Below are positions 1,645-53,940 of a stretch of 64,000 bases of DNA, piece after piece. A model generated the notes under the pieces. It searched no databases and was not told the origin of the DNA. It saw nothing but the letters and a program-made list of their open reading frames with translations. A program made the position numbers and the translations under genes. Every line of letters begins with the position of its first letter. Within the stretch, counting starts at the first letter, position 1. The stretch comes from an uncultured Acidobacteriaceae bacterium (GTDB lineage Bacteria; Acidobacteriota; Terriglobia; Terriglobales; Acidobacteriaceae). The stretch covers positions 169 to 64,168 of the forward strand of contig CAVYOX010000005.1 in assembly GCA_963770245.1 (NCBI GenBank), written 5' to 3'.

Positions 1645-2145
1645 GCAGGCCCATCTGTTGACACCAATGCAGTATTGCGATTAAACCAGAAACACGGAGA
1701 CGAATCTATTGGACGATGGTATTGGGTGATGCCTTCGCGTTAGCCGGAGCCACGAGCGCGTACTCGCTCGAAAGATTTGTCGCTACGCGACACCACGCTG
1801 CGCTGACGTCCGTAACCCGATACCAAGCTCCAATGGCGTTCTCCACTGCAGTGGCGCATCTTTGTGTCATGAAAGTGCCGCCAAAAAAACCGCCATGAAG
1901 AACGCGCTCAGCCGTGTTATCAAAACACTGCCGGATTGATGTTAACGGCGTTTCATCGCGGCTTGGGAACACCGAAACTGCAAGCAGCACAAACGAAAAC
2001 TGGATCGACCGGTAGTCGATCACGGTTACGACTCCACCCACCACAAACTTATCCATCGCGACACAAAGTCGGAGTAGGGATCATGATTGCTCACAACCCC
2101 CTCCACGGATCCGGACAGGCGGATTTCCCGCATCCGGCTCTTGCC

Positions 2146-4483: not shown

Positions 4484-4834
4484 CGGCGTTCGTCCTTAGA
4501 CTTCCCGATGCGTCCCAAGGCTACTGCTGCCCTGGGCGGACCTGGGATCTCCCGGTTCCCGCGCGAGGTGCTTGCGTACGTGCACGGGGTCTCTGACCGC
4601 GCGGGACTCTGGCGCACCTCGCGATATCGGTGCACCCGATCGAGCCTTCCGCTTTCTCCTACAGCGTCGGCGTCCCGAAGTGATTGTCTTACGCGGCTGA
4701 ATACCCGGCCCGCACGCTCCCCTGTCAACGCTTCGACACCGCCCTTGCGAGCGGCTCCGCATGACTCGGGGCCGATGTGGGTCGCTGATCCACTTTCGTA
4801 TGACTTTTTCATTCACTACACCTCGCCGGTTTAG

Positions 4835-6568: not shown

Positions 6569-7975
6569 TTATTTATTCTGGGTTGCCTTGAGCGTCCTAG
6601 AGACATCGCCGGTCGACGGAGTAGCGGTCGTCGCCGGGTTAAATTGTTGTGCCAACTTGAGGAAAGCCTGCGGGTTCTCGCTCAATTCTTCGTGCGATTG
6701 AGGATGGGCGTTGAGGTAATCCTGCAGCGCGGGATGGTCCCTCAGATAGTACGGGTTCTTGGCCAGCGACGGGTCTCGAGAAAGTTCGCTGGAGATATTG
6801 GCGTGGTCTCCGAGGAACCTGTTAAAGCTCGAGAGTTCTACCCGATCCGGGTCATGATCCCGATGCATTGTGGAACCTTCGTGGTTGTCGGCACGATTCT
6901 CCTGCCGCATGAACGCATTTGGGTTTTCTTTGTATTGCTCGCGAACTTGCGGATGCTCGGCGAGGAATTGCTGCAGAGCAGGGTGGTCCGCGGCAAACTT
7001 TTGGTCATTGACTAGCGATGGGTCGCGCCTGAGCTGCTCGGCGATTTCCGGATGGCCGTCGAGGAAGCGGTCCAGGTTGGCTGATTCGGGCCGAGCGATT
7101 TCGCGGCCCTGGTTGTCTTCGCTGCGGTCGAAGCGATTCTCCGGCCGCATGAACGCATTTGGGTTTTCTTTGTACTGCTCGCGAACTTGCGGATGTTCGG
7201 CCAGGAACTGCTGCAGAGCCGGATGATCGGCGGCAAACTTTTGGTCATTGACTAGCGATGGGTCGCGCCTGAGCTGCTCGCCGATTTCCGGATGGCCGTC
7301 GAGGAAGCGGTCCAGGTTGGCTAGTTGGGGCCGAGCGATTTCGCGGCCCTGGTTGTCTTCGCTGCGGTCGAAGCGGTTCTCCTGCCGCATGAACGCATTT
7401 GGGTTTTCTTTGTACTGCTCACGAACTTCCGGATGATCAGCCAGGAACTGCTGCAGAGCCGGATGATCGGCGGCAAACTTTTGGTCATTGACCAGCGATG
7501 GGTCGCGCCTGAGCTGCTCGGCGATTTCCGGATGGCCGTCGAGGAAGCGGTCCAGGTTGGCTAGTTGAGGCCGAGCGATTTCGCGGCCCTGGTTGTCTTC
7601 GCTGCGGTCGAAGCGATTCTCCTGCCGCATGAACGCATTTGGGTTTTCTTTGTACTGCTCGCGAACTTGCGGATGATCAGCCAGGAACTGCTGCAGAGCC
7701 GGATGATCGGCGGCAAACTTTTGGTCATTGACCAGCGATGGATCGCGCTTGAGCTGCTCGGCGGTTTCCGGATGGGCGTCGAGGAAACGATCGAAATCGG
7801 CAAGCTGGTGCCGGGTGACGTCGTTATCCTTATCCTTGTCCTGCACTTGATCCTTGTCCTGCACTTGCGGCGACGTTGTCTGCGATTGCGCTCCCGCGGG
7901 TGTCGTGGCCCACAAGAGTGCGACCAAGGCTAGCAAAACGAGACAGTATGGAGTAAGTGGAGTTCTGCATTTCAT
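6569..7975 (-). CDS. secreted tandem-repeat protein (five copies of an 80-aa repeat rich in HP and NP motifs)
   Basis: Signal peptide MKCRTPLTPYCLVLLALVALLWATTPAGA. This is followed by repeats of LANLDRFLDGHPEIAEQLRRDPSLVNDQKFAADHPALQQFLADHPEVREQYKENPNAFMRQENRFDRSEDNQGREIARPQ. Confidence 0.8.
   Translation of the reverse strand: MKCRTPLTPYCLVLLALVALLWATTPAGAQSQTTSPQVQDKDQVQDKDKDNDVTRHQLADFDRFLDAHPETAEQLKRDPSLVNDQKFAADHPALQQFLADHPQVREQYKENPNAFMRQENRFDRSEDNQGREIARPQLANLDRFLDGHPEIAEQLRRDPSLVNDQKFAADHPALQQFLADHPEVREQYKENPNAFMRQENRFDRSEDNQGREIARPQLANLDRFLDGHPEIGEQLRRDPSLVNDQKFAADHPALQQFLAEHPQVREQYKENPNAFMRPENRFDRSEDNQGREIARPESANLDRFLDGHPEIAEQLRRDPSLVNDQKFAADHPALQQFLAEHPQVREQYKENPNAFMRQENRADNHEGSTMHRDHDPDRVELSSFNRFLGDHANISSELSRDPSLAKNPYYLRDHPALQDYLNAHPQSHEELSENPQAFLKLAQQFNPATTATPSTGDVSRTLKATQNK
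6880..7800. repeat. 240-bp tandem repeat array, about 3.8 near-identical copies, plus a diverged copy at about 6640-6880
   Basis: Blocks 6901-7140, 7141-7380, 7381-7620 and 7621-7800 align base for base with only scattered substitutions, for example gaacgcatttgggttttctttgtactgctcgcgaacttgcggatg in each. Confidence 0.9.
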
Positions 7976-10420: not shown

Positions 10421-11737
10421 CTATAGAGACTGCAAGAACTCGAGGATGGCTTCTTGCTGCTCCGTCTTGAGCTTTTCAAATTGCTGGCTGGCATGGCTGG
10501 CCTCGTGGCCGTGCCGCAGGATGGCGTCGCGCAAGGTCAGAGATTCGCCGTCGTGCATCAACCGCGGACGCAAGCGGACTCCCCATAAGGGCGCGGTGCG
10601 TATTTTATTGCGACTGCCCTCGAAGTCCTGTTTCGAAAGATATCCCGACATGACCTGAAAGACTTTGTTCCCGTAGTGCTCCCGGGTGGCCTGCAGAATT
10701 CCGTCGCCCGTCCCAACGTCATGCATCAAGAAATCCCCATAGGGATGAAATGAGATGGACCCGAGCGCGACCGGAATCGTAAAGGTTCCGCCGTTGATCT
10801 TGGTTCCGGGGGGAGCAGTGGTCAAGGTCTCGACATGGCAAGTCGCACATCCGATCTTTTGAAACAAACCTTCGCCCTTCTGGGCAACCGGGCTGCTCGC
10901 CAGCTGGGCGTCACGCGCAGGCGCTTTCGTGGCGCGAATAAACCGGGCGAAGTGATCGATATCGGACAGGCCATCGGGGCCGGGTGTGTCATTGGGCTCT
11001 GAAGCCGTATTGCAAAGTTTGGTCACCTCATCCGGTTGAAGGCGGTTTGTGATGCCCATCTCGTTCAGGTAAGCGTCGCCGGCGAAGGAAAGCAGGCTCG
11101 CGTGCTGGTCCTTCCAACCGAACCTTCCTACGCTCATCTGTCCGGGGGCTTCTACGATCGGAACCTCGAGCACCTGTCCGCAGATTTTTCGATGTGACGC
11201 TTTGCATTGTTGCTCAGCGAGATCGATGAGGGTCTGATCGGAAAGCGCCTCGACGAAGCCATCCCCCAACAAGTTCAGGGACAGGCGAAATGTGCGGATC
11301 GTCTCGGTCTGGGGAACTCGCTCTTGAATTTCCTTGTCGGGAAAAGCTGCGTTCGGACAAATGGCGCGATCATTCACCAGCGAGCGGCCAGAAATCACTT
11401 CGGTTCCGTGGGCGATCGGGATTTCCGGGTTGCGGAAGTGTCCCTCCGGCCCCTGATGGCCGACCCGCAATTCCGAGACCTGGGAAGCTGCTCCAGAAAC
11501 CGGACTCTGATGGCATTCGCGGCAGGACTGCGCGTTGTAAAGGGGTCCGAGCCCATCGCTCAGCTGCTCGACTTCTTCGAATTTGGTCTGATCCGCTTGA
11601 TGCGTCGCATCATCGGTGACGCCGTTGCTTCGGTTGTCAAAACCGGCAGGCGCTTCGGTGAAACGGGAGGCCGAGGAGACGAGGATAAGACCGCTGAGGA
11701 TAAGACTGAAGACGGCCAAAGGGATCAACAATCGCAT
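10421..11737 (-). CDS. di-haem oxidoreductase, DUF1111 family
   Basis: Two CxxCH motifs (SCRECHQ, GCATCHV). C-terminal APLWGVRLRPRLMHDGESLTLRDAILRHGHEA...ILEFLQSL is typical of DUF1111. Signal peptide is present. Confidence 0.85.
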   Translation of the reverse strand: MRLLIPLAVFSLILSGLILVSSASRFTEAPAGFDNRSNGVTDDATHQADQTKFEEVEQLSDGLGPLYNAQSCRECHQSPVSGAASQVSELRVGHQGPEGHFRNPEIPIAHGTEVISGRSLVNDRAICPNAAFPDKEIQERVPQTETIRTFRLSLNLLGDGFVEALSDQTLIDLAEQQCKASHRKICGQVLEVPIVEAPGQMSVGRFGWKDQHASLLSFAGDAYLNEMGITNRLQPDEVTKLCNTASEPNDTPGPDGLSDIDHFARFIRATKAPARDAQLASSPVAQKGEGLFQKIGCATCHVETLTTAPPGTKINGGTFTIPVALGSISFHPYGDFLMHDVGTGDGILQATREHYGNKVFQVMSGYLSKQDFEGSRNKIRTAPLWGVRLRPRLMHDGESLTLRDAILRHGHEASHASQQFEKLKTEQQEAILEFLQSL

Positions 11738-42269: not shown

Positions 42270-42344
42270 GTGATTCTCAGTTGGAATCCGTAGGCTCAGT
42301 CTGGTTCCAGTTTGAGTACCGCGGTCCTGGAGCAGGAAGATACG

Positions 42345-43463
42345 ATGTCGGTCTCGCAGGCAACCAGCATGGGCCGGGTCGCCCATGATTTCTCCAAGCA
42401 TCCAATGCTCGTGTATTGGGAGATGACCCAGGCTTGCGGCTTAGCCTGCAGGCACTGCCGGGCTGAGGCCATGGCCAAACCTCATCCTTTGGAATTGACC
42501 ACGGCGGAAAGCCGGTTCTTGCTGCAGCAGATTGCGGAGTTCGGCGCCCCGCTGCCTCACTTGATCCTTACCGGGGGCGATCCTCTCAGCCGCCAAGACA
42601 TCTATCCGCTCCTTGACTTTGCTTGCGGGCTTGGCCTGGAGGTTTCCATTACTCCTAGCGCGACTCCCGCACTGACTGACGACGCGATTGCCCGGCTGCA
42701 GCAGCATGGCATTCTAAGCCTGGGTCTCAGCCTGGACGGCTCATCGGCCGAAAAACATGATGCGATTCGCGCGATTCCCGGCACCTTCGACCGCACCGTC
42801 GCGGCCGCCCGACACGCCGGACGCCTGGGCCTTCCCATTCAGGTCAATACGCTGGTTGCAGAAGAAACCGCCGCCGATCTGCCTGCCATCTACGAACTGC
42901 TGCGAGGCGGTTTCCCGGTCATGCGCTGGAGTTTGTTTTTCCTGATCTCGGTGGGCAGAGGCAAAGCTCTGAATGAGGTTTCGCCAGAGGAAGGCGAACG
43001 CATCATGAACTGGGTACTTGAGCTGCTACCGCAGGCGCCCTTTGCCGTCAAAACCACGGAAGCCCCGTCGTATCGCCGGCTCGCCATCAGCCAAATGCGC
43101 GCTGTCGGTACTTCATACGCGGATATGAAACAGACCGCGGTCTACAAAGGCTTCCAGATTCGCGACGGGCACGGCATTGTGTTTGTCTCCAACCAGGGAG
43201 AAATCTATCCTTCCGGTTTCTTGCCCCTGCAGTGCGGCAACGTGCGCACGAGTTCATTAGTGGACGTGTACCGCAATTCCGAAACCTTCCGCGCCCTACA
43301 CTCCCCCGGTCAGTTTCACGGCAAATGCGGCGTGTGCGAGTATAGCCACATCTGTGGTGGGTCGCGCGCCCGCGCTTTCGCTTATAGCGGAGACGTCCTC
43401 GGGACAGACCCCTTCTGCCCTTACGAGCCGTGCACGGGGAGTTCCCCGGGAACTAGGCCGTAG
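42345..43463 (+). CDS. radical SAM/SPASM domain protein
   Basis: CGLACRHC (CxxxCxxC) within YWEMTQACGLACRHCRAEA. C-terminal Cys cluster GKCGVCEYSHICGGSRARAF...DPFCPY. Confidence 0.85.
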   Translation: MSVSQATSMGRVAHDFSKHPMLVYWEMTQACGLACRHCRAEAMAKPHPLELTTAESRFLLQQIAEFGAPLPHLILTGGDPLSRQDIYPLLDFACGLGLEVSITPSATPALTDDAIARLQQHGILSLGLSLDGSSAEKHDAIRAIPGTFDRTVAAARHAGRLGLPIQVNTLVAEETAADLPAIYELLRGGFPVMRWSLFFLISVGRGKALNEVSPEEGERIMNWVLELLPQAPFAVKTTEAPSYRRLAISQMRAVGTSYADMKQTAVYKGFQIRDGHGIVFVSNQGEIYPSGFLPLQCGNVRTSSLVDVYRNSETFRALHSPGQFHGKCGVCEYSHICGGSRARAFAYSGDVLGTDPFCPYEPCTGSSPGTRP

Positions 43464-43581: not shown

Positions 43582-44895
43582 TCAGCGGCCGGAGCCGCCT
43601 TCGGCAATCTGCAAATCGAGGGAGACGCGTTCGCCGTTAATCAGCACGGTTCCTTGGTCAACCAACTGCTGGCCGGTGCATTCGTAGTTTGCATAGCAAC
43701 GCAATGCGGAAAACGGAAAGAAGAACTCGACTGCTTCGGAGTTGGCGCTTGCCGCCGCAGTTTTGCCGGCTACGTGAACCGTCGTGCTGAAACCCACACC
43801 GTCGAAGTTCTGCTCCGCTTTTAAGTATTCGAGCGTCGGACGCACCAGATGGGCGATATGCTCATCGAAGGCCAGCGCCGCCAATTTATAACGCGAACCG
43901 TTGGCGGATTGTGGAAGCGAAGAGTTGATGGAAAGCTCCAAGTAGATCGCTTGACGAAACCCGACGAAACTCGGGGGTGCATAGCCGACGAAGTGGGCTT
44001 GTGGGTCCATGCCCTTCATCATCTGGGCGATGATTTCCTGGTCGGAGGTTTCTAGAGAAGCCAGCGCTTGCGGCGAGGTGTCGCGCGGGGGAGGCAGCGG
44101 AACAGCGGTTCCTTGCTGTCTTGGGGCCACCGAGGGCGCGGGCTGAGGCGCACCACCGGGAACGACCGCAGAATCTGCTTGAGGAACCTCTTCCCCATTC
44201 TCCGCGAAGGTCCTTCCCTTTCTTTGCGAGACCTCGCTTGCTGAGCCATCGACTGCCAACCGCCGCCCTTCGTTGGTCAACCAGATGGAAACGGGCTGGG
44301 CGTTCAAGAAAGCCTTCCCCTCAAGCAACGCGGCTTGCTGCACGGTCTCGTTCTTGGAGCCAATCAGTCTTATGGCGGCCTGCTGCGGCAGGAAGACCAT
44401 CAGGTTCTCCGCCCGCTCCATGTCGACGCCCATCACTTTGCCCATGATGTGGTGGGAGACTTCGATCGCGTAGCCTTGAATCTCGCGGTTCGACTGAAAG
44501 CGCGGGACCGCGCCTTTCAGAATGGGCATAACTACGGCGAGAAATGTGGCGCGGGCGCGCTGCTCCTCGCTCATCTTCTGATTCGAGTACGCGGCGTAGT
44601 AGTTTCCTGTAATCGCCAGTACGGTTTGGTCGTTGTAGCTGTCGAAGCGGATGGAGTGTTGGTCTGCGCGCTGCTGTTCCGCCTGATCCAGGTCGAGTTT
44701 GCGGCTGAGATAGAACGGATAGTCGAAGTGACTGGCGAGAATGTCGCGCCCCGCGGATTGCAACTCGTCCATGTACTGCTGCTGCAGGGATCTGAGCTCT
44801 GGATCTTTGATTTCCCACGGACTTTCAACTTGGGCAAGGCATGTGCCGCAAGCCAACAAAAAGAAAGCGAGCCGGAGCGATTTATTTCTGGACAT
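43582..44895 (-). CDS. periplasmic hypothetical protein, last gene of the Rieske/b operon
   Basis: Signal peptide MSRNKSLRLAFFLLACGTCLAQ. Two globular halves joined by a Pro-rich linker. Its start overlaps the upstream gene by 14 nt. Confidence 0.55.
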   Translation of the reverse strand: MSRNKSLRLAFFLLACGTCLAQVESPWEIKDPELRSLQQQYMDELQSAGRDILASHFDYPFYLSRKLDLDQAEQQRADQHSIRFDSYNDQTVLAITGNYYAAYSNQKMSEEQRARATFLAVVMPILKGAVPRFQSNREIQGYAIEVSHHIMGKVMGVDMERAENLMVFLPQQAAIRLIGSKNETVQQAALLEGKAFLNAQPVSIWLTNEGRRLAVDGSASEVSQRKGRTFAENGEEVPQADSAVVPGGAPQPAPSVAPRQQGTAVPLPPPRDTSPQALASLETSDQEIIAQMMKGMDPQAHFVGYAPPSFVGFRQAIYLELSINSSLPQSANGSRYKLAALAFDEHIAHLVRPTLEYLKAEQNFDGVGFSTTVHVAGKTAAASANSEAVEFFFPFSALRCYANYECTGQQLVDQGTVLINGERVSLDLQIAEGGSGR

Positions 44896-45622
44896 ACGTC
44901 ATTCCGGGACCAGGATACGGTGGATCCGAGATCAGTCGGATGTAGGCAATCAGAGCCTGCGTCTCTGTCTTGCTGAGAGTATATCCGTAGGGTGGCATCA
45001 GTGCGGACTTGTTCAAGGACGCGCCGCCGTGGTTGATGACGGCGGTCAGGTCGTTGTCGGTCATCTTATTGAGCGTGTCCCCGTCTGTGAAAGCGTGCGG
45101 CTTGACCTCCAGATTATCGTAATTGGAAACGCGCTCGGGCGTAGATTCCGGGTTATGGCAGCGGACGCAGTACTTTGCGTCGAGCTGTTCGCCCACTTGT
45201 GCTTGATAGCCGAGCGCAATCTCCTCCAGGGTGAGTTCCACTTTTTTCTGTGCCTTGGTCAGGGAGCCGGCCGTGATCTGGTAGCGCCCCGCCATTCCGC
45301 CTAGCCCCACGTTAGTACTGACCTGTCCGCTGGAGTCGGCGAGGCCGCTCGGTGGGTCAAAGCTAACGCCTGGGGGCCCGCTGAATTCCACCAACGCTCC
45401 CGGGACCGCGTTGCCCTGCTCGTCGTTGACCTGGACGACCACGGGCTGGCTGAGCACCGCCCCGGTGGCGCCGATTTGTTTGTTGCCGCTTGATTCAACC
45501 AGAGCCGTGCCGAAAGCGGTCGGTTTTAGATCTGATGGCGAAGCGGATTTCCTGGCGCACCCGGCACTGCCGATGACAACGGCGAGTCCAAATGCCACCG
45601 GAGCCAGCGAACATCTGGTCAT
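44882..45622 (-). CDS. lipoprotein with an Ig-like (Big_1-type) domain and a monohaem cytochrome c domain
   Basis: Lipobox VIGSAGC. LSQPVVVQVNDEQGNAVPGALVEF is invasin/Big-like. CVRCH with a downstream MPPYG Met ligand. Confidence 0.7.
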   Translation of the reverse strand: MTRCSLAPVAFGLAVVIGSAGCARKSASPSDLKPTAFGTALVESSGNKQIGATGAVLSQPVVVQVNDEQGNAVPGALVEFSGPPGVSFDPPSGLADSSGQVSTNVGLGGMAGRYQITAGSLTKAQKKVELTLEEIALGYQAQVGEQLDAKYCVRCHNPESTPERVSNYDNLEVKPHAFTDGDTLNKMTDNDLTAVINHGGASLNKSALMPPYGYTLSKTETQALIAYIRLISDPPYPGPGMTYVQK

Positions 45623-47679
45623 TTCTTCGCCTCCTGCTGGCCGGAGTTTCGTTGCGCCATCAGGAAAGCGGTCAGCGCGCGGGCATCTTCGTCGCTGATA
45701 TTGAAGTTCGGCTCAATGGTTCCCGGCCGGAGAGCTTGCGGGTTCTTCAGCCAGTTATAGATCCAAGCGGCGTTCAGGCGCGAACCCACTTGTGTGAGTG
45801 TCGGCCCAATATAACCCTTGTCGGCCGTCGAATCGACGATGTGGCAAGACTGGCACGCATACTTGGCGTAGAAGAGCTGTTTGCCCTGTTCGACTTGGGC
45901 CGTTGGATAGCCGCTGGCCGGCATGGAGTCGCGGTCGATGGCAGGGGTTTGATAAACCGTCATGATGTAGTCGGTCAGCTCGGTGATGTCGCTGTCGGAG
46001 AGGTTGAACTTGGGCATGCGGCGAATCAGCGACGGCCGCAGCGTGTTGGGATTCTTCAGGAACGCCTGGAGCCATGGCCGCTGCACCGAGCTGCCTTCCC
46101 AACTGAGATCTGGGGCCATGTCACCGCCGCGACCGTTGATGGTGTGGCAACTGAAGCAGGCCAGATCTGCCATGAGCTTTCCGGCTTTGCCTGCGGGCTG
46201 GTAGTCGGAGGTCCGCGGCGCCGGCACGGCCAAGGCGCGCGGCAGGTTCTGGCTTCGATCCGTCAGCGCGAGCAGCGCCGTCGTTAGAGCGTCGATTTGC
46301 GCAGGCGCGAAGCTGAACTGCGGCATCTTCAGTGCCGTCCCGAACGACCGCGGCTGGCGGATCTTGGCGGAAATGTAGTCCGGCAAGGTGTGCGGCATTC
46401 CCGTCAGGAAGATCAGTTGCGTAATCGGCTTGCTGCCGATTCGGGTAAGCTCCGGGGCGAAATTCTCCGGCTTCTTAATCCCGCTGATTTCGTGGCAGGC
46501 GGCACAGCCATACTCTGTAGCCAGAGTCTTGCCATGCGCAATTTGTTCGGGCGTGGCCGCATCCAAATGCACGTTGGCCAACAGATCGGAATCGGTCTTG
46601 CCTTCGAGGTACCGGCTCAGCGATGACAACTGCTGTTCGCTGAAGCGGTAATGCGGCATCGCGGTTTCGGGGTCATAGGTACGGGGATTGCGCAGCCATG
46701 CCTGCAGCCATTCCGGTTTCACTTTGCTGCCCACACGCGTCAGCTCGGGGCCGACATCTCCGCCTACCACATTGCCCGCCGCATTCTGCACCGCGTGACA
46801 GGAGGCGCAGAACGACTCGCCGTATAAACTGGCGGCCGCAGTGGGATCAGGCGGAGCTTTCGACGCCGACGCCGGCAACGTCGCGGTATCTTCCGGCAGA
46901 GGTGTGCTGTTCGCGATCAAGAAAGCGGAAATGTCGCGGGCATCCGGATCGCTCAGCTTGAAATTCGGCATGATGGCAGAAGCGGCATAGGCCTGAGGGT
47001 CCTTCAGCCAGGCATAAATCCATTCCCGCGTGGTCTTGTCGGCGATGTGAGAAAGCGAAGGCGGGTCGTCAGTCGCTTGCATGGTGCCGCCATCGGGCAG
47101 CTTGACCGTGTGACAGCTGACGCAACCATAACGCGCTAACAGAGTCCGCCCCCAGTTGAGCTGGGGCGTACCAGGAACCGCAGCACGGTGGCATTGTCCA
47201 CAAGAAGCTTCCACGTAGCGTGCGGGCAAAATGGGCTGCTCCCACGCCAAAGTGCTGCGATGGGCTTCGGCAACGGTTGTGGCGGCGCCTTGTCCGCGAT
47301 GGCACACTACACAGCCGAATTCATCCAGCTTGTGGGGGATCACAGGATGTCGGCGGAACGGTTGCATACTCACGTCAGCCAGGCTGGCTTCCTTCAATCC
47401 GACGTGACAGGTGGTGCAGCGGTCTACCACACCGAGATCGGGAAGCCAGATTTGCTGAATTCCGCCCTGCAAATGGCGCTGCAGGGTAAGCGCGTCGCCG
47501 CGCCCCCGGATCAAACTCAGGTATTGATCTTGATAATGGCGCCACTCGCTAAAATAGTTCTTGGCCGGAGCAATGGCCAGCGAAAGGAGCAAGAGCAGAC
47601 TGACCACACCAAAGGCACGGACGGGGTCGCCGAACAATGTCCGCCACCCCACGAAAAGCGGGTTCTTCGACGAGTCCAC
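45619..47679 (-). CDS. membrane-anchored octahaem cytochrome c
   Basis: Eight CxxCH motifs: CTTCH, CVVCH, CGQCH, CVSCH, CASCH, CAACH, CFSCH and CQSCH. The last five sit in repeated class-I-like modules (...WL.NP......MP.F.LS...). N-terminal TM helix. GTG start abuts the upstream stop. Confidence 0.85.
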   Translation of the reverse strand: MDSSKNPLFVGWRTLFGDPVRAFGVVSLLLLLSLAIAPAKNYFSEWRHYQDQYLSLIRGRGDALTLQRHLQGGIQQIWLPDLGVVDRCTTCHVGLKEASLADVSMQPFRRHPVIPHKLDEFGCVVCHRGQGAATTVAEAHRSTLAWEQPILPARYVEASCGQCHRAAVPGTPQLNWGRTLLARYGCVSCHTVKLPDGGTMQATDDPPSLSHIADKTTREWIYAWLKDPQAYAASAIMPNFKLSDPDARDISAFLIANSTPLPEDTATLPASASKAPPDPTAAASLYGESFCASCHAVQNAAGNVVGGDVGPELTRVGSKVKPEWLQAWLRNPRTYDPETAMPHYRFSEQQLSSLSRYLEGKTDSDLLANVHLDAATPEQIAHGKTLATEYGCAACHEISGIKKPENFAPELTRIGSKPITQLIFLTGMPHTLPDYISAKIRQPRSFGTALKMPQFSFAPAQIDALTTALLALTDRSQNLPRALAVPAPRTSDYQPAGKAGKLMADLACFSCHTINGRGGDMAPDLSWEGSSVQRPWLQAFLKNPNTLRPSLIRRMPKFNLSDSDITELTDYIMTVYQTPAIDRDSMPASGYPTAQVEQGKQLFYAKYACQSCHIVDSTADKGYIGPTLTQVGSRLNAAWIYNWLKNPQALRPGTIEPNFNISDEDARALTAFLMAQRNSGQQEAKK

Positions 47680-48384
47680 CTAACTCCCCCAAGGCCAAAC
47701 CCAGGACCAGCCTGGGCCACGAAAGAATGTACCAACCGCGGTGAGTACCACCAGCTCGAACAAGAACCACGTCATCACCCAATAGGAAAGCGGCTTGGCT
47801 GCGACATACCGCTGGAAAGCCGAGGGCGACTGCAGCGAACTCTGGCCGGCCATGAACATGAATCCGGTCATGATCAGAGTCGGAGCGAGAGCCACGTAGA
47901 CGTGAAAAAGCAGTAGGAACAAACCGAGCCCCAGCGCGACCCCGTAGAAGATCCGCAGTCGGAACTTGCGATGCTGCAGGAATAAGCCTTCGGCCTCGAT
48001 GTTGATGTTGAAATAGGGGATGACGACCAAAGCGATGACCACCAGGGTAGGAACCAGCACGCCGGCAACCACCGGCGGGAAGTAGTGCAGCATCTCCTGC
48101 AGCCCCAGAAAATACCAGGGCGCTTTGGCGGGATTGGGAGTGTGGGAGGGATCGGCGATACCTTCGAGCGGCGCATTGAACAAAAGAGCAATCACGGCCA
48201 ACACAATCGCCAGCACCTCAATCGCAACCGCCGCCCGGAACAGAACTTCCGGATAAGTCTGGAGCTGCGTCTCGTCCGCGGTTCTTACTTGGGCGGAGGT
48301 GCGTCGGGTGACAAAAGCCACACGCACGGGCGACTTGCGCGCGTCGGAGTCCATGCCGGCGGAAAAATCCTTGGGGTCGCTCAT
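47680..48384 (-). CDS. cytochrome b C-terminal part (subunit IV/PetD-like)
   Basis: [21 protein letters not shown] (PEWYF-type motif). ATGA overlap with the cytochrome b6 gene. Confidence 0.8.
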
Positions 48385-49178
48385 TGCGGATCCTTGGTCG
48401 AGGCTGCTGGAGCAGGCACCGCCATGGCCCCGATCGTCTTGGGCTCGGTCGGGTGGGAGTAAAGCCCACCATCTTTACGAATTCGCCAGAAATGCACCGC
48501 GATCAACAAGGTCGCTGCCAGCGGCAGGATTACGCAGTGCAGCACGTAAAAACGCAGGAGTGCGTTCGCATTCACCTGGTTGCCGCCCAACATCAGGAAG
48601 TGCACTCTGTTGCCGAAAACCGGCACGGCGGAGGCGATGTTCGAGCCGACGGTGATGGCCCAAAACGCCAGCTGATCCCAGGGCAGCAAATATCCCGTGT
48701 AGCTCAAAAGCAGGGTAATGAGCAGCAGAATAACGCCAATGACCCAATTGAATTCGCGGGGCGGGCGGTAGGCGCCGCGGTAAAACACTTTGAACATATG
48801 CGCGAACACCAGCAAGACCATGGCATGCGCTGACCAGCGATGAAGATTGCGCAGAAACAATCCTGAGGAAACGACGAACTGCAGATCTTTGGTATCCGCG
48901 TAGGCTTGCGGGACTGATGGATGGTAATACAGCATCAGCAGAATGCCGGTGATCAGCAGAATCAAGAAGGTCCCGAAGGTCAGCGTTCCCAAGTACCAGG
49001 TGGTGCTAAAGCTGACCATGCGCCTCCGCACCTTGGTCGAAAACAGGTGTAAGAAGATGTTCTGCTGGATCGCGAGGGCGCGATGCAGAGTGCTCGAACC
49101 CGTCCCGCTGCGAAAAACCGAACGCCACACGCGCGCGTTGCGCAATTCGTCGAAATAGTTGCCGATCGTCTTGGCCAT
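48381..49178 (-). CDS. cytochrome b6-type (split cytochrome b, N-terminal part)
   Basis: [18 protein letters not shown].... Haem-ligand His pairs lie in [18 protein letters not shown] and [22 protein letters not shown]. An alternative TTG start at 49184 overlaps the Rieske stop. Confidence 0.85.
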
Positions 49179-49180
49179 GC

Positions 49181-49672
49181 TCAAACCCTCACAAACTGCA
49201 TGGGACGGATATCGGTCGAGCGGTCTACCATCAGATCGCCGTCCTCACTCACCCAGGTCCGCAGCCAGGGCAACGGTCTGGGTGCTGGGCCGGCGATCTT
49301 CTCTCCGTCGCGGTTGAACTTGCTCCCGTGGCAAGGGCAGGCAATGATGCCCAACTCGGGTTTCCATGCCGTCATGCAGCCGAGGTGGGTACAGATGGCG
49401 CTCAGCGCGAAAAAACCTTCCTTGGTACGGATCAGGTAAATCCCCGAGTTCACATCGAGGGTAACGGAATCCTCGGAATAGCCCTCCGGTTTGCCGGCGT
49501 TGACAATGGGGGAAGGCTCGTACAGCACATTGGGAGAGAGAAACTGATAGGCAAACACCGCCGTGCCGGTGGCGGCAATGCTCAACGACCCCAGTCCCAG
49601 CTTCACAAAGAAAGCACGTCGGTCGAATTCTTTGCCGGGGGCCGCGGGCTTGTCTTGTTTCTCCTCGGACAT
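49181..49672 (-). CDS. Rieske 2Fe-2S protein
   Basis: Tat-like RRAFFVKLG. Cluster boxes CTHLGC and CPCHGS. Confidence 0.9.
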
Positions 49673-49674
49673 GC

Positions 49675-51660
49675 TTACCTCGGGCTCGCGCCTGCCAATG
49701 GCGCTGGGTGCCGAAAAGGTCCATCCAACGTTTCGATCGAGATCAGGCCCGTGGGCTCAGCCGGAACCAAGCGGTAAGACTCCATGGTGATCGTGCTCAC
49801 GGGACAACGCGCGGCGCACAACCCGCAACGAATGCAGCGAGTCTCGTCCTTCAGCATCGCGGAACCACTCACCACTCCAAGGTCGTCAGCCTTCACTTCA
49901 TCCAGTTCCACTGCGAACAACTCCTGGTGCTCCCGTATTTGTTGCACCGCCTCGGGATCGAAGGCAATTCGATCCAACGACACCAGTTGCAAACAATTTT
50001 CCGGGCACACATCGACGCAGCCGCCACACAGGATGCACAGGGTGCCATCTTCAGGAGTGCCCTCGAAGACCGTATTCACCCAGCAGTGCAGACAGCGCTG
50101 CGCCTCTTGCATCGCAGTCTCGGCGTCGTAACCGATTTCCACTTCCGTCACCCCGGTGCGGCGCTCGAGCGGCAACATGGGAATCGGCTCACGGGTTAGA
50201 TCGAGCAAGTTCAGCGGCATGCCATAGCGTTTGAGCACATCCACTTCGACGATCGGTTCGGGATGCTTTTCTCCGCGCAGGAATTCATCGATGCCCACCG
50301 CCGCGCGTTTGCCATCGGCCACGCTGTCGATAATCAGGCGCGGCCCAAACACGCAGTCGCCTCCGGCGAAGATGCCATGGGCTGAGGTCATCAGGGTTTG
50401 GGGATTAACGGCGATCAAGCCCCGCGGCGAGAGCTCCACGCCATCTTCGGGTTTTAGGAAGTCCAGTCTCGGCGCCTGGCCGATGGCCATGATGATGGTG
50501 TCGCATTCCAGCTGGGTTTCACTGCCCTCGTAGAACGCCGGATTGAAGCGCTTGTTCTGATCGAACACCCACTTCGTCCTCAGCGCCTCCAGAGCGACAA
50601 CCTTGCCGTCCTGGCCGATCATCCGCTTGGGGCCCAGGCCGGGATGCATGATGATGCCTTCCATCTCCGCTTCCTCGATTTCTTCCAGGGCAGCCGGCAT
50701 TTCCTCGCGCTTTTCCAGGCAGACAAGGTTCACTTCGCTCGCCCCCAGGCGTAGCGCGGAGAGCGAGATATCCACCATTTCTCGAGTGGCAACCGCAGCC
50801 ACGTTCTCTTGCGATGGTTCCAGATCTTCGACTCCGGCAACATGCTGGCGCACCACCTCGCGAGCCGCAGAACGGGCGACATCCATAGCCACGTTCCCGC
50901 CGCCAATCACAATGACCTTCTTGCCGATGGTGAACTTGTAGCCGAGGTTCACGTTCAAGAGGAAATCAATTCCCTTGTAGACTCCGTCTAGATCGACGCC
51001 GGGAATCGTGAGGTCGCGACTGCGATGGGCTCCCACCGCGATCAGCACAGCATCAAAGCCCTGACCGCGCAGATCGGAAATCGCAAAGTCGCGCCCGGCC
51101 GAGTGATTGAGTTTGAGAGTGATGTCTCCGGTCTCGAGAATTTCCCGCACCTGGGCTTCCACGACATCGCGGGGCAAACGATATTCGGGAATGCCGAGAT
51201 AAAGCATTCCACCGGCGACCGGCGCAGCTTCAAAGATTGTGACCGAGTAGCCCATAAGGGCCAAGTCATGAGCCGCCGACAAACCGACGGGCCCGCCTCC
51301 TACAACCGCGATTTTGAATGGAAGTTTGTTCTGAGCGCGCCCGGCATTTACATCAACCGGATGTTTCGACTCGGGGCCATGGCGCTCAGTCAGAAAACGC
51401 TTCAAGGCTCGGATCGCAATGGGCCGGTCGATTTCTCCGCGACGGCATGCGGTCTCGCAAGGATGCGCGCAAACCCGGCCGCAGATACTCGCCAGCGGAT
51501 TGGGATCGCGAGCAAATTTGTAAGCTTCCTCAAAGCGGCCTTCCGCGATCAGCTCCACGTATCGGCCGGCATTGGTATGGGCCGGACAAGCCATCATGCA
51601 AGGGAAGTTGGTGTTGAGCCAATCCCGGTCCACCTTCTTATCTTTGTAGCGTTTCAACAT
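49675..51660 (-). CDS. GltD-like NAD(P)H/FAD oxidoreductase with a C-terminal 2x[4Fe-4S] ferredoxin domain
   Basis: N-terminal Fe-S Cys pattern (CPAHTN...CGRVCAHPCETAC). Dinucleotide folds KIAVVGGGPVGLSAAHDL and KVIVIGGGNVAMDVARSA. CILCGGCVDVCP and CIRCGLCAARCP. Confidence 0.85.
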   Translation of the reverse strand: MLKRYKDKKVDRDWLNTNFPCMMACPAHTNAGRYVELIAEGRFEEAYKFARDPNPLASICGRVCAHPCETACRRGEIDRPIAIRALKRFLTERHGPESKHPVDVNAGRAQNKLPFKIAVVGGGPVGLSAAHDLALMGYSVTIFEAAPVAGGMLYLGIPEYRLPRDVVEAQVREILETGDITLKLNHSAGRDFAISDLRGQGFDAVLIAVGAHRSRDLTIPGVDLDGVYKGIDFLLNVNLGYKFTIGKKVIVIGGGNVAMDVARSAAREVVRQHVAGVEDLEPSQENVAAVATREMVDISLSALRLGASEVNLVCLEKREEMPAALEEIEEAEMEGIIMHPGLGPKRMIGQDGKVVALEALRTKWVFDQNKRFNPAFYEGSETQLECDTIIMAIGQAPRLDFLKPEDGVELSPRGLIAVNPQTLMTSAHGIFAGGDCVFGPRLIIDSVADGKRAAVGIDEFLRGEKHPEPIVEVDVLKRYGMPLNLLDLTREPIPMLPLERRTGVTEVEIGYDAETAMQEAQRCLHCWVNTVFEGTPEDGTLCILCGGCVDVCPENCLQLVSLDRIAFDPEAVQQIREHQELFAVELDEVKADDLGVVSGSAMLKDETRCIRCGLCAARCPVSTITMESYRLVPAEPTGLISIETLDGPFRHPAPLAGASPR

Positions 51661-51733
51661 GATTGGGAAGGATGCGAATCCTGGGCTGAAAAGAATTAAG
51701 GAGCGGAGATGCGCCTTCCCCGCTCCCGGCCTG

Positions 51734-52315
51734 CTATTTGCTTAGCGTGAAGTCCGCCTTGGTGTCGCCCGCAACCGTCACGGGCTTTGACTGGTTCTTT
51801 GCGCCTTCGTGCCACCCGGCTACGGTGTAGCTGCCATCGGGGACGTTCTCGATTTTGTAGTCTCCCGACTTGTCGGTCAGCGCATAGTACGGAGTCGGCG
51901 CCACGACAATGTAGCCAGACATCTCGGGATGCACATTGCACAGCAGCGGAACGGCGCCCGGGTTATCGAACTTGAACGGACGTTTCTGCCCTTGGGGCCA
52001 GGTGCCCAAGTTGTGGCCCAGTTTCTTGTTACCCCCGACGGAAATCCAAAAAACATTGTGGGCGACGCTGTCGCTGTTCAAAAACTCCACCGTCGTTCCT
52101 TGCTGCACCACGACAATGTGGGGCTGGAACATCAGGCCCTTCTGGTCCATGACCGGCTCCTCGGTGGGAGCGGGAAAGGTCTTGCCGGCTACCGCTTCAA
52201 CGTAAACTACCGACTCGCCCGTGACGCCCGACACTTTTCCAGAAATCGTGCCCGCGCTGGCGGCCGCCCCCATCATTGCGACTACTGCCATCACCATCAG
52301 TATCGTAGGTCTCAT
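51734..52315 (-). CDS. periplasmic type-1 copper (cupredoxin) protein with a CarboxypepD_reg-like C-terminal domain
   Basis: Signal peptide MRPTILMVMAVVAMMGAAASA (GGAGG RBS). Cu ligands AHNVF and the amicyanin-type loop CNVHPEM (C-x2-H-x2-M). DKSGDYKIENVPDGSYTV. Confidence 0.7.
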   Translation of the reverse strand: MRPTILMVMAVVAMMGAAASAGTISGKVSGVTGESVVYVEAVAGKTFPAPTEEPVMDQKGLMFQPHIVVVQQGTTVEFLNSDSVAHNVFWISVGGNKKLGHNLGTWPQGQKRPFKFDNPGAVPLLCNVHPEMSGYIVVAPTPYYALTDKSGDYKIENVPDGSYTVAGWHEGAKNQSKPVTVAGDTKADFTLSK

Positions 52316-52362
52316 TCTTGCCTCCATTGTGTCCGCAATCACTTGCGGTTGAATCCTGGTCG

Positions 52363-53940
52363 TTAGTAGGCGAACTCCAAGCCGCCCGTGGCGGTATTTG
52401 TACGGAATAGGTTCACTGCGTTTCCATTCGTGTCGTAGGTGAGGGCCTGCTGCGGCCGGAACGCATACTCAAACGACGCCTTGATGTTGGCGTGGATCAG
52501 GAATTGTACCCCAGGGGTAATCCGGTCGCGCGTGCTCCCCACAGGCGAGTAAAAGTTCAGGCTACCCGCCTGATTCAGAAAATCCGCTGAGGACTGGACG
52601 CGATCCCAACGCAGGATTCCCATCACCCACGGGAGCATGAGATAGTCGGCCTCGAGGAAGCCGCCACTGAACTTGGCTGGGCTGCCGGGAACGAATCCAG
52701 TGAACAGAGGGTTAAACAACGAATCTTGATCGTGGCCATACATGTACAGGCCAAACAGATTGAAGGTGTGGTAGTTGAAACTGAAATCGCCTCCGACACG
52801 ATAGAACGGCTCATGCGCGGTGATCACCGCGGACGTCACCCCGTCCGACGCGAAACCAGAGAAACGCTGCTCTGAACTGCCGTAGAAGGAATACGCGCCC
52901 ACGCTTAAGTATGTATGGTCACGCGGCCCACTCGCGCCGGCCGCCTGGATCGAATTGCGGCTCGCAGCGTCCTTCTCCAGATTAAATCGGTAGGAGACAT
53001 TGGCGTAGAGATCCTTAAAACTGGAGTCTGAGAAAAAGCCAACCCCCGGGGCGCCGATCTGTCCTCCCGTAGGCGAAGGCACATTGGTCGCAGACGAGGA
53101 ACTGCCGCCGCTGGTGTTTTGATCCACGATGGCCAGCGAATAACGATATCCCTTGTAAAGATGGCCTCCACTGAACTCGATTCCGCGGGCGGCATCGCTC
53201 AACGCAAACAAGTTGTTTACCCCCGCTTGCGGGTTCTGTTGATTGGCCACGGCAATGTTGGCCTCGGTGTAAATATCGTATGGGCTGATATTGATCGACC
53301 GAGCTTGCGTAAAAGGCAAGTCGAGTTCGAACTGGCCCACCCTCATGGTCAACGCGTCCGTCGGCAGCTTGAAGAAGCGTCCAATGTTGACGAAGCGCAG
53401 ATAACCGTCACCAAGCCCGCCATTCGCGTTCTCTCCCGCCACGCTAATATCGTCATCCACCCAGAAGGCGATATCGCTCCCAAAATTTCCTGCCATGAAG
53501 ATGCTGAAAAAACCCGGTTCAAAATCGGTGGTCGGAACATTCGGTATTTGCAGCGTCCCCGGGGTCCCTGTAGGCGTCTGGTTGTAGTTGTTGGCGCTGC
53601 CGTTGGTGTACTGGAAAAACTGGTTGAAGCGCAGGCCAATGGGGGGTAGCCCTGGGATGGTCCCCGGAAATATGGTGTGCGGCCACAGCTCTTTCTGCGC
53701 AGGCGCTCCGAGCATTATGGGCGCGAGCTTGATAAACGCGTCATCATCCTTGGGAAACTTGAACCCCGCATCCTTAAAAGCTTTGCCGAAGTCATTCAGT
53801 TTGGGAAAGTCGACATGGCAGGTGCTGCACGAGGTGCCGTATTGACGGGAAAAGGCCGGAATGGCGTGACTATGAGTCGAAAACAACAAGCATGCAAACA
53901 GCTCCAGGAACACAACCGACATGCGATGATGCACTTGCAT
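52363..53940 (-). CDS. outer-membrane beta-barrel-like protein with an N-terminal c-type haem motif (Cyc2-like architecture)
   Basis: Signal peptide ...FSTHSHA|IPAF. A single CSTCH lies about a dozen residues into the mature chain. About 480 aa follow, rich in alternating Gly, aromatic and polar residues. The C-terminus is ...GGLEFAY (aromatic terminal residue typical of OMPs). ggaggagg RBS. Confidence 0.55.
   Translation of the reverse strand: MQVHHRMSVVFLELFACLLFSTHSHAIPAFSRQYGTSCSTCHVDFPKLNDFGKAFKDAGFKFPKDDDAFIKLAPIMLGAPAQKELWPHTIFPGTIPGLPPIGLRFNQFFQYTNGSANNYNQTPTGTPGTLQIPNVPTTDFEPGFFSIFMAGNFGSDIAFWVDDDISVAGENANGGLGDGYLRFVNIGRFFKLPTDALTMRVGQFELDLPFTQARSINISPYDIYTEANIAVANQQNPQAGVNNLFALSDAARGIEFSGGHLYKGYRYSLAIVDQNTSGGSSSSATNVPSPTGGQIGAPGVGFFSDSSFKDLYANVSYRFNLEKDAASRNSIQAAGASGPRDHTYLSVGAYSFYGSSEQRFSGFASDGVTSAVITAHEPFYRVGGDFSFNYHTFNLFGLYMYGHDQDSLFNPLFTGFVPGSPAKFSGGFLEADYLMLPWVMGILRWDRVQSSADFLNQAGSLNFYSPVGSTRDRITPGVQFLIHANIKASFEYAFRPQQALTYDTNGNAVNLFRTNTATGGLEFAY

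Follow-up and report, generated by a model that had tools for sequence, protein, structure and literature searches.

A nine-gene cluster of an uncultured acidobacterium unites a putative Cyc2-type haem-porin, a cupredoxin and an NAD(P)-linked Rieske/cytochrome b complex

A chromosomal cluster of nine genes from an uncultured Acidobacteriaceae bacterium combines a putative fused cytochrome-porin of the Cyc2 family and a secreted copper protein with a Rieske/cytochrome b6 complex that appears to bring its own NAD(P)-linked flavoprotein. It lies in a stretch of 64,000 nucleotides (nt) (assembly GCA_963770245.1, contig CAVYOX010000005.1, positions 169 to 64,168 of the forward strand), which is referred to as the window and whose numbering is used for its features below. 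The nine consecutive open reading frames (ORFs), designated g1 to g9, are all located on the minus strand between positions 43582 and 53940. Gene content, motifs, predicted fold, topology signals and synteny of the cluster could be demonstrated, and from these we infer that its parts form one electron path from iron outside the cell to the quinone and NAD(P) pools.

Results

The original prediction had described nine very tightly packed ORFs on one strand, and all of its coordinates and junctions were reproduced. The genes g3 and g4 are separated by a gap of 2 nt (49673-49674), g5 and g6 as well as g7 and g8 overlap by 4 nt each (48381-48384 and 45619-45622, respectively), the stop codon of g6 abuts the GTG of g7 (47680/47679) and the overlap of g8 and g9 comprises 14 nt (44882-44895). 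The spacers at the top two junctions, g1/g2 and g2/g3, which had been given as about 47 and 73 nt, hold with the ATG at position 52315 as start of g2. The GTG at position 52342, with which the mechanically called ORF begins, would reduce the g1/g2 spacer to 20 nt; it is unlikely to be the start, as the ATG fits orthologues of 192-198 amino acids (aa) and is probably the one used. The cluster is flanked by unrelated housekeeping genes on the opposite strand or at a greater distance, which encode a radical SAM/SPASM protein, an acyl-ACP-phospholipid acyltransferase, an anti-sigma factor and an acetate-CoA ligase. As polynucleotide phosphorylase and ribosomal protein S1 are encoded elsewhere in the window, the stretch is chromosomal. 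The contents that had been proposed for g1 to g7, namely an outer-membrane barrel-like protein with one CSTCH, a type-1 copper protein, a GltD-like enzyme, a Rieske protein, cytochrome b6, subunit IV and an octahaem cytochrome c, agree with motif counts and Pfam matches. The proposed absence of cytochrome c1 or f is matched by the Pfam search, which returned neither family among the nine products.

Keffer et al. (2021) define the Cyc2 family by a single N-terminal CXXCH motif and a 16-strand porin, with the signature AXPXFAR[Q/K][T/Y] ahead of the CXXCH and PXL four residues after it. The product of g1 (52363-53940) carries a single CSTCH (residues 38-42) after a signal peptide or hydrophobic leader, and its post-signal sequence AIPAFSRQY-GTS-CSTCH-VDF-PKL follows this signature with one change, from Ala to Ser. 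Distant relatives read AIPAFARKY.TSC.TCH...PKL. With 525 aa, the protein also reaches the minimal length of about 365-400 aa for Cyc2, and its C-terminal residue is aromatic. Residues C38, C41 and H42 are invariant in an alignment of 52 sequences with a mean column identity of 23% as well as in an alignment of 138 sequences. Pfam and NCBIfam yielded no match for g1. An exhaustive profile-free search (E <= 0.001) revealed relatives in 2029 representative clusters (50% identity), and nearly all full-length relatives (420-550 aa, 24-46% identical) have the Cyc2 motif and an aromatic end. A prediction of the g1 structure with AlphaFold2 from 30 close homologues reached a predicted local distance difference test (pLDDT) score of only 33.7, and the prediction from 138 diverse sequences a pLDDT of 69.8 and a predicted template modelling score of 0.71. 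In this second model, the region between about residue 100 and the C-terminus has 16 main strands. When it was compared with the Protein Data Bank (PDB) using Foldseek, the top 50 matches were all outer-membrane beta-barrel channels and nearly all of them 16-strand porins, including BpsOmp38 (1.9e-11), PorB, OmpF and OprO (4RJW). OprO/OprP and PorB are also the templates reported for Cyc2 and for Cyc572 of Leptospirillum, and in a network study from 2023 Cyc572 adjoins a dense cluster of acidobacterial and Nitrospira homologues. Judged by its sequence and predicted barrel, g1 is best classified as a Cyc2-family fused monohaem cytochrome-porin, in line with the barrel-like outer-membrane protein with a conserved CxxCH of the original prediction.

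The secreted product of g2 (51734-52315) matches the plastocyanin/azurin-type family PF00127 with 28.9 bits (cut-off 21.2) and, with its C-terminus, PF13620 (CarboxypepD_reg). It carries HNVF...CNVHPEM, and the complete His-Cys-His-Met ligand set (H95, C135, H138, M141) is invariant in 82 distinct orthologues; the loop CNVHPEM is identical in the g2 copies of Ignavibacteriae, Glassbacteria and Zixibacteria. The scores for the NCBIfam equivalog models of amicyanin (27.6 vs 110) and plastocyanin (19.5 vs 88) are below the cut-offs. These features identify g2 as a predicted type-1 (blue) copper cupredoxin fused to a transthyretin-like domain, and the earlier assignment, which had been based on the loop, is borne out.

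The predicted cytoplasmic product of g3 (49675-51660) is a flavin- and NAD(P)-dependent oxidoreductase with a Fer4_20 plus Pyr_redox_2 core (GltD/NfnB/DPD type) and a C-terminal 2x[4Fe-4S] ferredoxin part (two Fer4 matches). According to these domains and its 20 Cys residues it would hold about four Fe-S clusters. It scored under the cut-off of every NCBIfam model that it matched. An identity as GltD was rejected (TIGR01317: 199.9 vs 447.7; TIGR01318: 240.9 vs 483), and the cluster contains no GltB-like gene. The best PDB match of g3 is the NfnABC entry (9bov/9bp5), which served Hauser et al. (2025) as template for placing the Fe-S clusters in the NAD(P) reductase subunits of Kuenenia, including Kuste4570. 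As these scores are below the cut-offs and the g3 gene adjoins the Rieske gene in every complete locus, g3 is GltD-like, as originally stated, without being an ordinary GltD.

The gene g4 (49181-49672) encodes a Rieske [2Fe-2S] protein (PF00355) with a twin-arginine signal, whose two best PDB matches, Kuste4569 (9rk4, 6e-23) and Kustd1480 (9rk3), are ahead of all Rieske proteins from b6f and bc1 complexes. Its ligands CTHLGC...CPCHGSKF and its S-F signature are invariant, with CPCHGS[KR]F across the orthologues. The product of g5 (48381-49184) is a four-helix cytochrome b6 (PF00033, 152 bits) with cyanobacterial cytochromes b6 as best PDB matches (2.6e-45) and invariant haem-ligand residues His115, 129, 216 and 231. 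Cys35 of b6, which anchors haem ci/cN, aligns with Tyr64 of g5 (Gly or Phe in relatives), and g5 does not provide the covalent attachment of haem cN (ci). The b6f complexes and the Kuenenia models do have such a Cys-bound haem cN; its attachment is probably not class-defining for anammox-type complexes. Besides the four b-haem ligands, three further His residues of g5 (46, 88 and 120) are invariant across 64 orthologues. They might be related to the extra b-type haem that was proposed in AlphaFold3 models of the Kuenenia complexes. The subunit IV-like (PetD-like) membrane protein encoded by g6 (47680-48384) matches PF00032 with 25.4 bits (cut-off 20.7) and has, by simple hydropathy, four or more hydrophobic segments; the models of subunit IV from Kuenenia have five helices. 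The motif APWY at the quinol-oxidising (Qo) site is present in 61 of 63 orthologues of g6 and in all distant loci. The presence of both APWY and an S-F Rieske protein of predicted medium-to-high potential corresponds to the APWY clade as it is characterized by Kao and Hunte (2014).

The product of g7 (45619-47679; 686 aa) has exactly eight CxxCH motifs, an N-terminal hydrophobic anchor and a c7/NrfB-like fold which is followed by class I cytochrome c domains. This membrane-anchored octahaem cytochrome takes the place of c1/f. Its match to the NCBIfam model ExtS (106.7 vs a cut-off of 100) comprises residues 115-355 only. The gene g8 (44882-45622) encodes a class I cytochrome c, probably a lipoprotein, with one CVRCH (PF13442, 32.5 bits, cut-off 27). 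Of the monohaem lipoprotein with a Big domain that had been proposed, the single haem stands. The Big_1 match does not, as it remains under the Pfam cut-off (28.9 vs 34.9 bits) and distant orthologues lack the domain; the g8 orthologues of 147-163 aa in L084, L087, L090 and L091 (loci are denoted by L numbers) are without the Ig domain, which thus represents a clade-specific insert.

The genes g3 to g8 are likened to the Rieske/b complexes of Kuenenia because of the PDB matches of g4 and g3, the octahaem cytochrome g7 and the enlarged g6. A Rieske protein, a four-helix b6 and an enlarged subunit IV are encoded together, a multihaem c replaces c1/f and a subunit with FAD/NAD(P) domains and about four predicted Fe-S clusters is encoded along with them. 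The best description of the g3-g8 product is that of a putative anammox-type Rieske/b6 complex with an NAD(P) flavoprotein.

The last gene, g9 (43582-44895), had been listed as encoding an unknown periplasmic protein, and it indeed encodes a secreted protein without database relatives: neither the single sequence nor a profile of 22 sequences matched anything in Pfam, NCBIfam or the PDB. In the alignment of its orthologues, a linker rich in proline is visible, His149 is invariant and His148, Cys400 and Cys406 are nearly so. An internal duplication of its two halves was considered and is unsupported (BLASTP E = 0.12).

The distribution of g1 was determined by a pattern scan of one genome per GTDB species, in which at least 429 species-level genomes contained a close relative. 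The best 80 of these 429 matches are all from metagenome-assembled genomes (MAGs) of Acidobacteriota, mostly Terriglobia, and many of them are named for peat, bog, fen or palsa. Several assemblies include two copies of g1. Synteny was analyzed by tblastn with all nine products at 83 loci. About 60 of them, from Terriglobia, exhibit the complete order from g1 to g9, and the genes that flank the cluster in the window are essentially never found there. As the order recurs in about 60 loci with unconserved flanks, the nine-gene arrangement is far beyond chance.

A second acidobacterial clade, with a g1 that is 41% identical, has all nine genes in the same order, and some of the g1 matches around 41% identity are named Candidatus Acidiferrum. 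Loci whose g1 is only about 24% identical still have g1 to g8 in collinear order; there, identities amount to 40-49% for g2, 48-54% for g3, 58-66% for g5 and 37-40% for g7. This eight-gene cluster, each time with the Cyc2 signature, is located on contigs of Ignavibacteriae (GCA_016209795.1), Glassbacteria and Zixibacteria (GCA_001775395.1, L091). Collinearity of g1 to g8 was also found in two further lineages, including L087, for whose cytochrome b the search returned named relatives in Ignavibacteriae, Calditrichaeota, Latescibacteria, Glassbacteria and Zixibacteria. By these comparisons, the cluster is conserved across at least four bacterial phyla, and the pairing of g1 and g2, which is kept where g1 is only 24-31% identical, is ancient. 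The synteny in relatives on which the original prediction had relied is thus present both in Terriglobia and, for g1 to g8, beyond Acidobacteriota.

About 13 loci contain a short form of the cluster that is without Rieske/b genes and consists of g1, g2, a dihaem cytochrome c of about 300 aa (CxGCH...CHxCH) and g9. The dihaem gene is located between g2 and g9, 5′ of g1 or 3′ of g9. Short-form loci are L050 (9998-14569), L057, L069 (5156-10085), L078 (8498-12274) and L079. Long and short forms can occur in one assembly, for example OY970265 and JBKPCG01, if a shared record-name prefix is taken as one assembly. The gene g9 is part of both forms (30% identity for the copy in L084) and accompanies g1 and g2 in Terriglobia only. 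As it accompanies g1 and g2 in the short form, yet ends the long form, g1 to g9 can be regarded as one functional unit.

Directly 3′ of the g2 stop codon, the spacer between g2 and g3 contains a GC-rich hairpin (51699-51727, minus strand) with a stem of 11 bp, seven of them G-C, and a T-rich tail, which resembles a terminator. The predicted folding energy of the spacer is -24 kcal/mol. The hairpin motif GGGGAGCGG...CCGCTCCCC, whose loop varies and which in many cases is followed by a T-rich tail, is present 3′ of g2 in most long-form loci (e.g., L004, L022, L025, L030, L035 and L053). An uninterrupted stem of at least 7 bp was found in 54 of 81 distinct post-g2 sequences, compared to 27% of shuffles, and a few stems show compensatory A-U changes. 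The element may be a leaky terminator or an RNA-stabilizing structure which raises the dosage of g1 and g2 over that of g3 to g9. Of the original claim of a single operon, the collinearity therefore stands, and the undivided transcript has to be qualified by this conserved hairpin, which had been overlooked; separate transcription is not proven by it. A scan for the sigma-70 consensus detected no site in the g2-g3 spacer and none 5′ of g1, but its sites were no commoner than in shuffled sequence, and such a scan is uninformative for an acidobacterium.

The hairpin raises the question whether the cluster comprises two independent neighbours, with g1-g2 ending at the hairpin, g3-g9 forming an alternative complex III and no electrons flowing between the two. 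This idea fits with the terminator-like hairpin being present in the window and most relatives, with g1-g2 occurring without the Rieske/b genes in the short form and at the locus L085, and with the Rieske/b genes lacking an adjacent g1 at the locus L088 and, according to the literature, in anammox bacteria and Nitrospina. Attenuating hairpins within operons are, however, common. Furthermore, the genes remain adjacent and in order in at least four phyla although g1 identity falls to 24%, g9 pairs with g1-g2 in the short form, yet is distal to the Rieske/b genes in the long form, and the g2-g3 spacer has no consensus promoter. Two unconnected units are therefore considered quite improbable.

The surroundings of the cluster differ among distant lineages. 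At L085 (1-21398), g1 is accompanied by two cupredoxin-transthyretin paralogues and Rieske/b genes are absent; neighbouring genes encode EB_dh-cytochrome c fusions, a NarJ-like chaperone and a cytochrome bd-like oxidase, reminiscent of the respiratory gene sets of nitrite oxidisers. L088 (1-13962), whose cytochrome b is named Calditrichaeota, contains g3 to g8 without an adjacent g1. There, the module adjoins a molybdopterin oxidoreductase/Fe-S/NrfD set, a second pair of octahaem and monohaem cytochromes and EB_dh proteins, and a cupredoxin-like gene (CDVHEWM) is located nearby on the reverse strand. In the non-acidobacterial lineages a PAS/HAMP histidine kinase and a sigma-54-dependent response regulator are encoded beside the cluster (L085, 3842-7095; L086, 5397-9013; L087, 3200-7009; L089, 14508-18366; L090, 1125-4492; L091, 1899-4440), which suggests a dedicated regulation of the cluster in these lineages. 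This pair is absent from the window.

The radical SAM/SPASM protein of the window (42312-43463, plus strand), whose gene is convergent with g9, belongs to TIGR04053 (455 bits, cut-off 395), with the AhbD haem b synthase as next best match. Relatives that are 68-72% identical are encoded just 3′ of g9 in L050 and L079. Considering the unusual haem of Cyt572, a link of this protein to haem modification is possible.

Further features of the window are located outside the cluster. A group II intron is located on the minus strand at about 2068-4807 (Rfam RF02005, 164 bits; RF02003; RF00029). The ORF for its reverse transcriptase is divided between two frames (2743-3135 and 2430-2876), and the maturase has therefore probably decayed or suffered a frameshift. 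Long ORFs on the plus strand of the intron region are spurious; one of the frames inside the intron (2638-4215) has with 525 aa the same length as g1 and was rejected as a paralogue. The minus strand also encodes a secreted protein of 468 aa (6569-7975) with about five near-identical tandem repeats of about 80 residues (...DRFLDGHPEIAEQLRRDPSLVNDQKFAADHPALQQFLA...) and weak scattered Pfam matches, as well as a periplasmic haem protein (10421-11737), a dihaem oxidoreductase or putative peroxidase (PF06537 DHOR, 107 bits) with the motifs CRECH and CATCH.

Discussion

The reading that is tentatively favoured here, at somewhat less than an even chance, is an uptake of electrons from Fe(II) into a shared copper/haem pool, which the Rieske/b complex links to quinone and NAD(P). 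Two modules would span the envelope, with module A consisting of g1 and g2 (plus g9 in Terriglobia) and module B of g3 to g8. The haem-plug porin g1 would exchange electrons one at a time with a partner outside the cell, most likely iron, and hand them to g2, whose transthyretin-like domain may dock on the g1 barrel. Module B would expose the anchored octahaem cytochrome g7 and the monohaem cytochrome g8 on its periplasmic face and the four-cluster flavoprotein g3 on its cytoplasmic face. The copper protein and the c haems would constitute a single high-potential periplasmic pool that is touched by both modules. Electron transfer among g1, g2 and g7/g8, iron as the substrate and the direction of the flow are what we infer for this arrangement. 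Fe(II) outside the cell would be oxidised by g1 and its electrons would move through the pool downhill to a terminal oxidase encoded elsewhere. Module B would tie the pool to quinone and NAD(P) and supply or balance reducing power, possibly by a quinol-based bifurcation that sends one electron to the pool and the other to NAD(P)+.

Fe(II) uptake is favoured because all assayed Cyc2-family proteins are Fe(II) oxidases (three of three biochemically tested members; Keffer et al., 2021) and because the short form, with its dihaem cytochrome, and the long form correspond to the downhill and the uphill branch, respectively, of Acidithiobacillus ferrooxidans. It is also favoured because carriers of about +260-300 mV suit Fe(II) oxidation at any pH and because the cluster occurs in lineages from aquifers and sediments, beyond acid peat.

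Several points weigh against Fe(II) uptake. Keffer et al. consider Cluster 3-type Cyc2 homologues as functionally least certain, and cluster-3 cyc2 genes are also found in known iron reducers such as Geobacter. No terminal oxidase is encoded within or beside the cluster. The cultured Terriglobia that are named in one review are heterotrophs which are reported as Fe(III) reducers, and no Fe(II)-oxidising isolate is mentioned in it. The conserved hairpin might split transcription after g2. Finally, by our own reasoning, a reduction of NAD(P)+ by module B would need forward quinol oxidation, and the reverse direction would make g3 the electron donor. As NAD(P)+ reduction would need the forward direction, module B alone could not lift electrons from Fe(II) to NAD(P)H, and the cell would need either another quinone reductase that runs in reverse or quinol from an organic source.

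For complexes of this kind, two opposite proposals exist in the literature. For Kuenenia it is proposed, as a hypothesis only, that quinol delivers one electron to a c-side sink of high potential and the other, via b haems and Fe-S clusters, to NAD(P)+; the measured potentials of its Rieske proteins, +303 and +335 mV, are consistent with such a bifurcation. Kao and Hunte (2014), on the other hand, link APWY and the S-F pair to a medium-to-high Rieske potential and to reverse operation. A version in which both halves would be tied together is that of a self-contained machine, present in several phyla, in which extracellular iron acts as the high-potential partner of quinol bifurcation, so that the Rieske/b complex directly makes or consumes NAD(P)H, bypassing complex I, with g1 and g2 being obligatory. 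This stricter version is regarded as rather unlikely.

Electrons might also run outward. In this case, module B would oxidise menaquinol and bifurcate, and the whole system would be a dissimilatory Fe(III) reductase which also conserves energy as NAD(P)H. The low-potential electron would pass via b haems, Fe-S clusters and FAD to NAD(P)+, and the high-potential electron via the octahaem cytochrome, the cytochrome c, the cupredoxin and the Cyc2-type porin to an external high-potential acceptor, for which soluble or complexed Fe(III) at acid pH and perhaps Mn(IV) are candidates. The same mechanism has been proposed for the complexes of Kuenenia, whose Rieske potentials fit and to whose Rieske proteins g4 is closest, and it better accounts for a quinol oxidase, and not a terminal oxidase, being co-inherited with g1. 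In A. ferrooxidans, the chain from bc1 via cytochrome c and rusticyanin to Cyc2 is assumed to work in the outward direction when the cells respire Fe(III) anaerobically, reduction of Fe(III) is known from Acidobacterium capsulatum and Acidicapsa species, the relatives are MAGs from acidic peat, bog and fen, and the Ext cluster of Geobacter couples a porin-like protein and Rieske/b in a reductive context. However, this direction does not agree with the Fe(II) oxidase activity of every Cyc2-family protein assayed to date, with the short form, which has no quinol oxidase, or with the aquifer and sediment origin of those Ignavibacteriae, Zixibacteria and Glassbacteria that contain the same cluster. 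With a copper carrier and a Rieske protein of about +260-300 mV, the reduction of Fe(III) oxide would be feasible at low pH only and uphill at neutral pH. Moreover, the APWY motif has been argued to signal complexes that run in reverse. An outward flow is therefore judged improbable, at about one chance in four.

The same architecture could serve a partner other than iron, such as humic quinones, Mn(II)/Mn(IV), reduced sulfur or the oxyanions selenite and tellurite. The best NCBIfam names for g5, g6 and g7 are ExtP, ExtQ and ExtS, which belong to a selenite/tellurite reduction operon, and the Ext cluster likewise encodes a phosphate-porin-like outer-membrane protein. Keffer et al. allow for other functions of Cyc2, the cluster in L086 adjoins sulfur genes of the FCSD and DsrE type, and L085 and L088 adjoin EB_dh and molybdopterin enzymes. 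Yet, an identity of the cluster as an equivalog of Geobacter Ext/Cbc6 was rejected: the scores for ExtP (260.7 vs 290), ExtQ (55.2 vs 150) and ExtM are all below the cut-offs, ExtS passes over a part of g7 only and the composition differs. The cluster contains no rhodanese, no selenoprotein and no cytochromes with 10-12 haems, and ExtI has no haem, whereas g1 carries the haem signature of Cyc2. As iron is moreover the sole demonstrated substrate in the Cyc2 family, a non-iron partner appears distinctly less probable than an outward flow to iron.

The cluster is of interest for several fields. Complexes of Rieske/b type with a link to NAD(P) have been a hypothesis since about 2013, with their activity undemonstrated. 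Synteny now ties such a complex to a cytochrome family that can be assayed with Fe(II), which offers a tractable handle on the mechanism; if the stricter version is true, the cluster would be a natural system with an accessible external substrate for the NAD(P)-reducing Rieske/b mechanism of anammox. Cyc2 is used as metagenomic marker of iron oxidation, and its matches in Acidobacteriota and the FCB group are common and unexplained; the conserved partners described here suggest a concrete pathway. If the stricter version holds, hundreds of Acidobacteriota species from peat and soil, together with Ignavibacteria, Zixibacteria and Glassbacteria, would be unrecognised iron cyclers. In peat, bog, fen and palsa soils, iron redox cycling may influence carbon storage and methane. 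If dominant heterotrophs possess a dedicated, iron-linked module of respiration, the attribution of these cycles would change. In addition, the cupredoxin-transthyretin fusion and g9 are new candidate parts for extracellular electron transfer.

Comparison With Known Systems

The background on which the original prediction had drawn, i.e., NAD(P)-linked Rieske/b complexes in anammox bacteria and a route via Cyc2, rusticyanin and bc1 in A. ferrooxidans, agrees with the literature. In A. ferrooxidans, electrons pass from Cyc2 via rusticyanin either to Cyc1 and the aa3 oxidase (downhill) or to CycA1, bc1, quinone and NDH-1 (uphill). The rus and petI operons encode this chain, which is regarded as reversible and uses a dihaem c4 in its downhill branch. 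Both systems include a Cyc2-family monohaem porin, a type-1 copper carrier, c-type cytochromes and a Rieske/b link to quinone and NAD, and the long and short forms of the family found here resemble the two branches. However, the two operons plus NDH-1 of A. ferrooxidans are replaced here by a single cluster, in which the NAD(P) flavoprotein is directly attached and the oxidase is absent. Its bc1 complex contains c1, whereas the cluster encodes a split b6/subunit IV pair with APWY and an octahaem cytochrome. The g2 family appears to differ from rusticyanin by a short amicyanin-like C-x2-H-x2-M loop and by the transthyretin-like domain, as judged from a comparison with the NCBIfam models of amicyanin and plastocyanin.

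The complexes Kustd1480-1485 and Kuste4569-4574 of Kuenenia stuttgartiensis likewise combine a Rieske protein with a four-helix b6 and an enlarged subunit IV; in them, too, a multihaem c replaces cytochrome f and a GltD/NfnB-like NAD(P) oxidoreductase carries several Fe-S clusters. The S-F pair of g4 matches that of Kustd1480 and not S-Y. Unlike in the anammox-type complexes, g5 is without the Cys for haem ci/cN and no HAO-like octahaem protein is encoded. The anammox complex resides in the membrane of the anammoxosome, and nitrite has been proposed as its sink. Related operons for Rieske, b6, subunit IV and an octahaem cytochrome are known from Nitrospina gracilis and Candidatus Methylomirabilis oxyfera; the papers on these and on the anammox operons do not mention an outer-membrane haem-porin or a cupredoxin. 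The APWY clade of Kao and Hunte (2014) shares the invariant APWY of the Qo site and the medium-to-high potential S-F Rieske protein with the cluster. Their study treats sequences only, and in its accessible part a link to an outer-membrane cytochrome or a cupredoxin is not described.

Two further systems are partial precedents. The conserved extHIJKLMNOPQS cluster of Geobacter sulfurreducens (ExtHIJKL conduit plus Cbc6) encodes a phosphate-porin-like protein and c-type cytochromes and also a Rieske protein, a cytochrome b, a small membrane subunit and a lipoprotein cytochrome c. It differs by its rhodanese, its selenocysteine cytochrome, its 10- and 12-haem cytochromes and the haem-less ExtI as well as by the lack of a cupredoxin and an NAD(P) flavoprotein, and it has been tied experimentally to selenite and tellurite reduction. 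In the cluster of Zixibacteria RBG-1 (Castelle et al., 2013), which could be compared by its description only, a porin-type protein, mono- and multihaem cytochromes and PetAB occur together, as they do here, and it was interpreted as evidence for probable mixotrophic Fe(II) oxidation. It was described as Mtr-like, with MtrA/MtrB homologues and a decahaem cytochrome, and a Cyc2 signature, a cupredoxin or an NAD(P) subunit are not mentioned.

Surveys based on FeGenie flag Cyc2 in MAGs of Acidobacteriota, and in their accessible parts the gene neighbourhood is not analyzed. A full-text search of the open-access literature yielded no description of a cluster of Cyc2, a cupredoxin and an NAD(P)-linked Rieske/b complex. 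The original statement that this exact combination was not known is thus upheld for that literature, with the clusters of Geobacter and Zixibacteria RBG-1 as precedents for parts of it. Each module is of a known kind, and the novelty lies in the union of a predicted haem-porin, a cupredoxin-transthyretin fusion, an NAD(P)-linked Rieske/b6 complex and octahaem and monohaem cytochromes c in one cluster.

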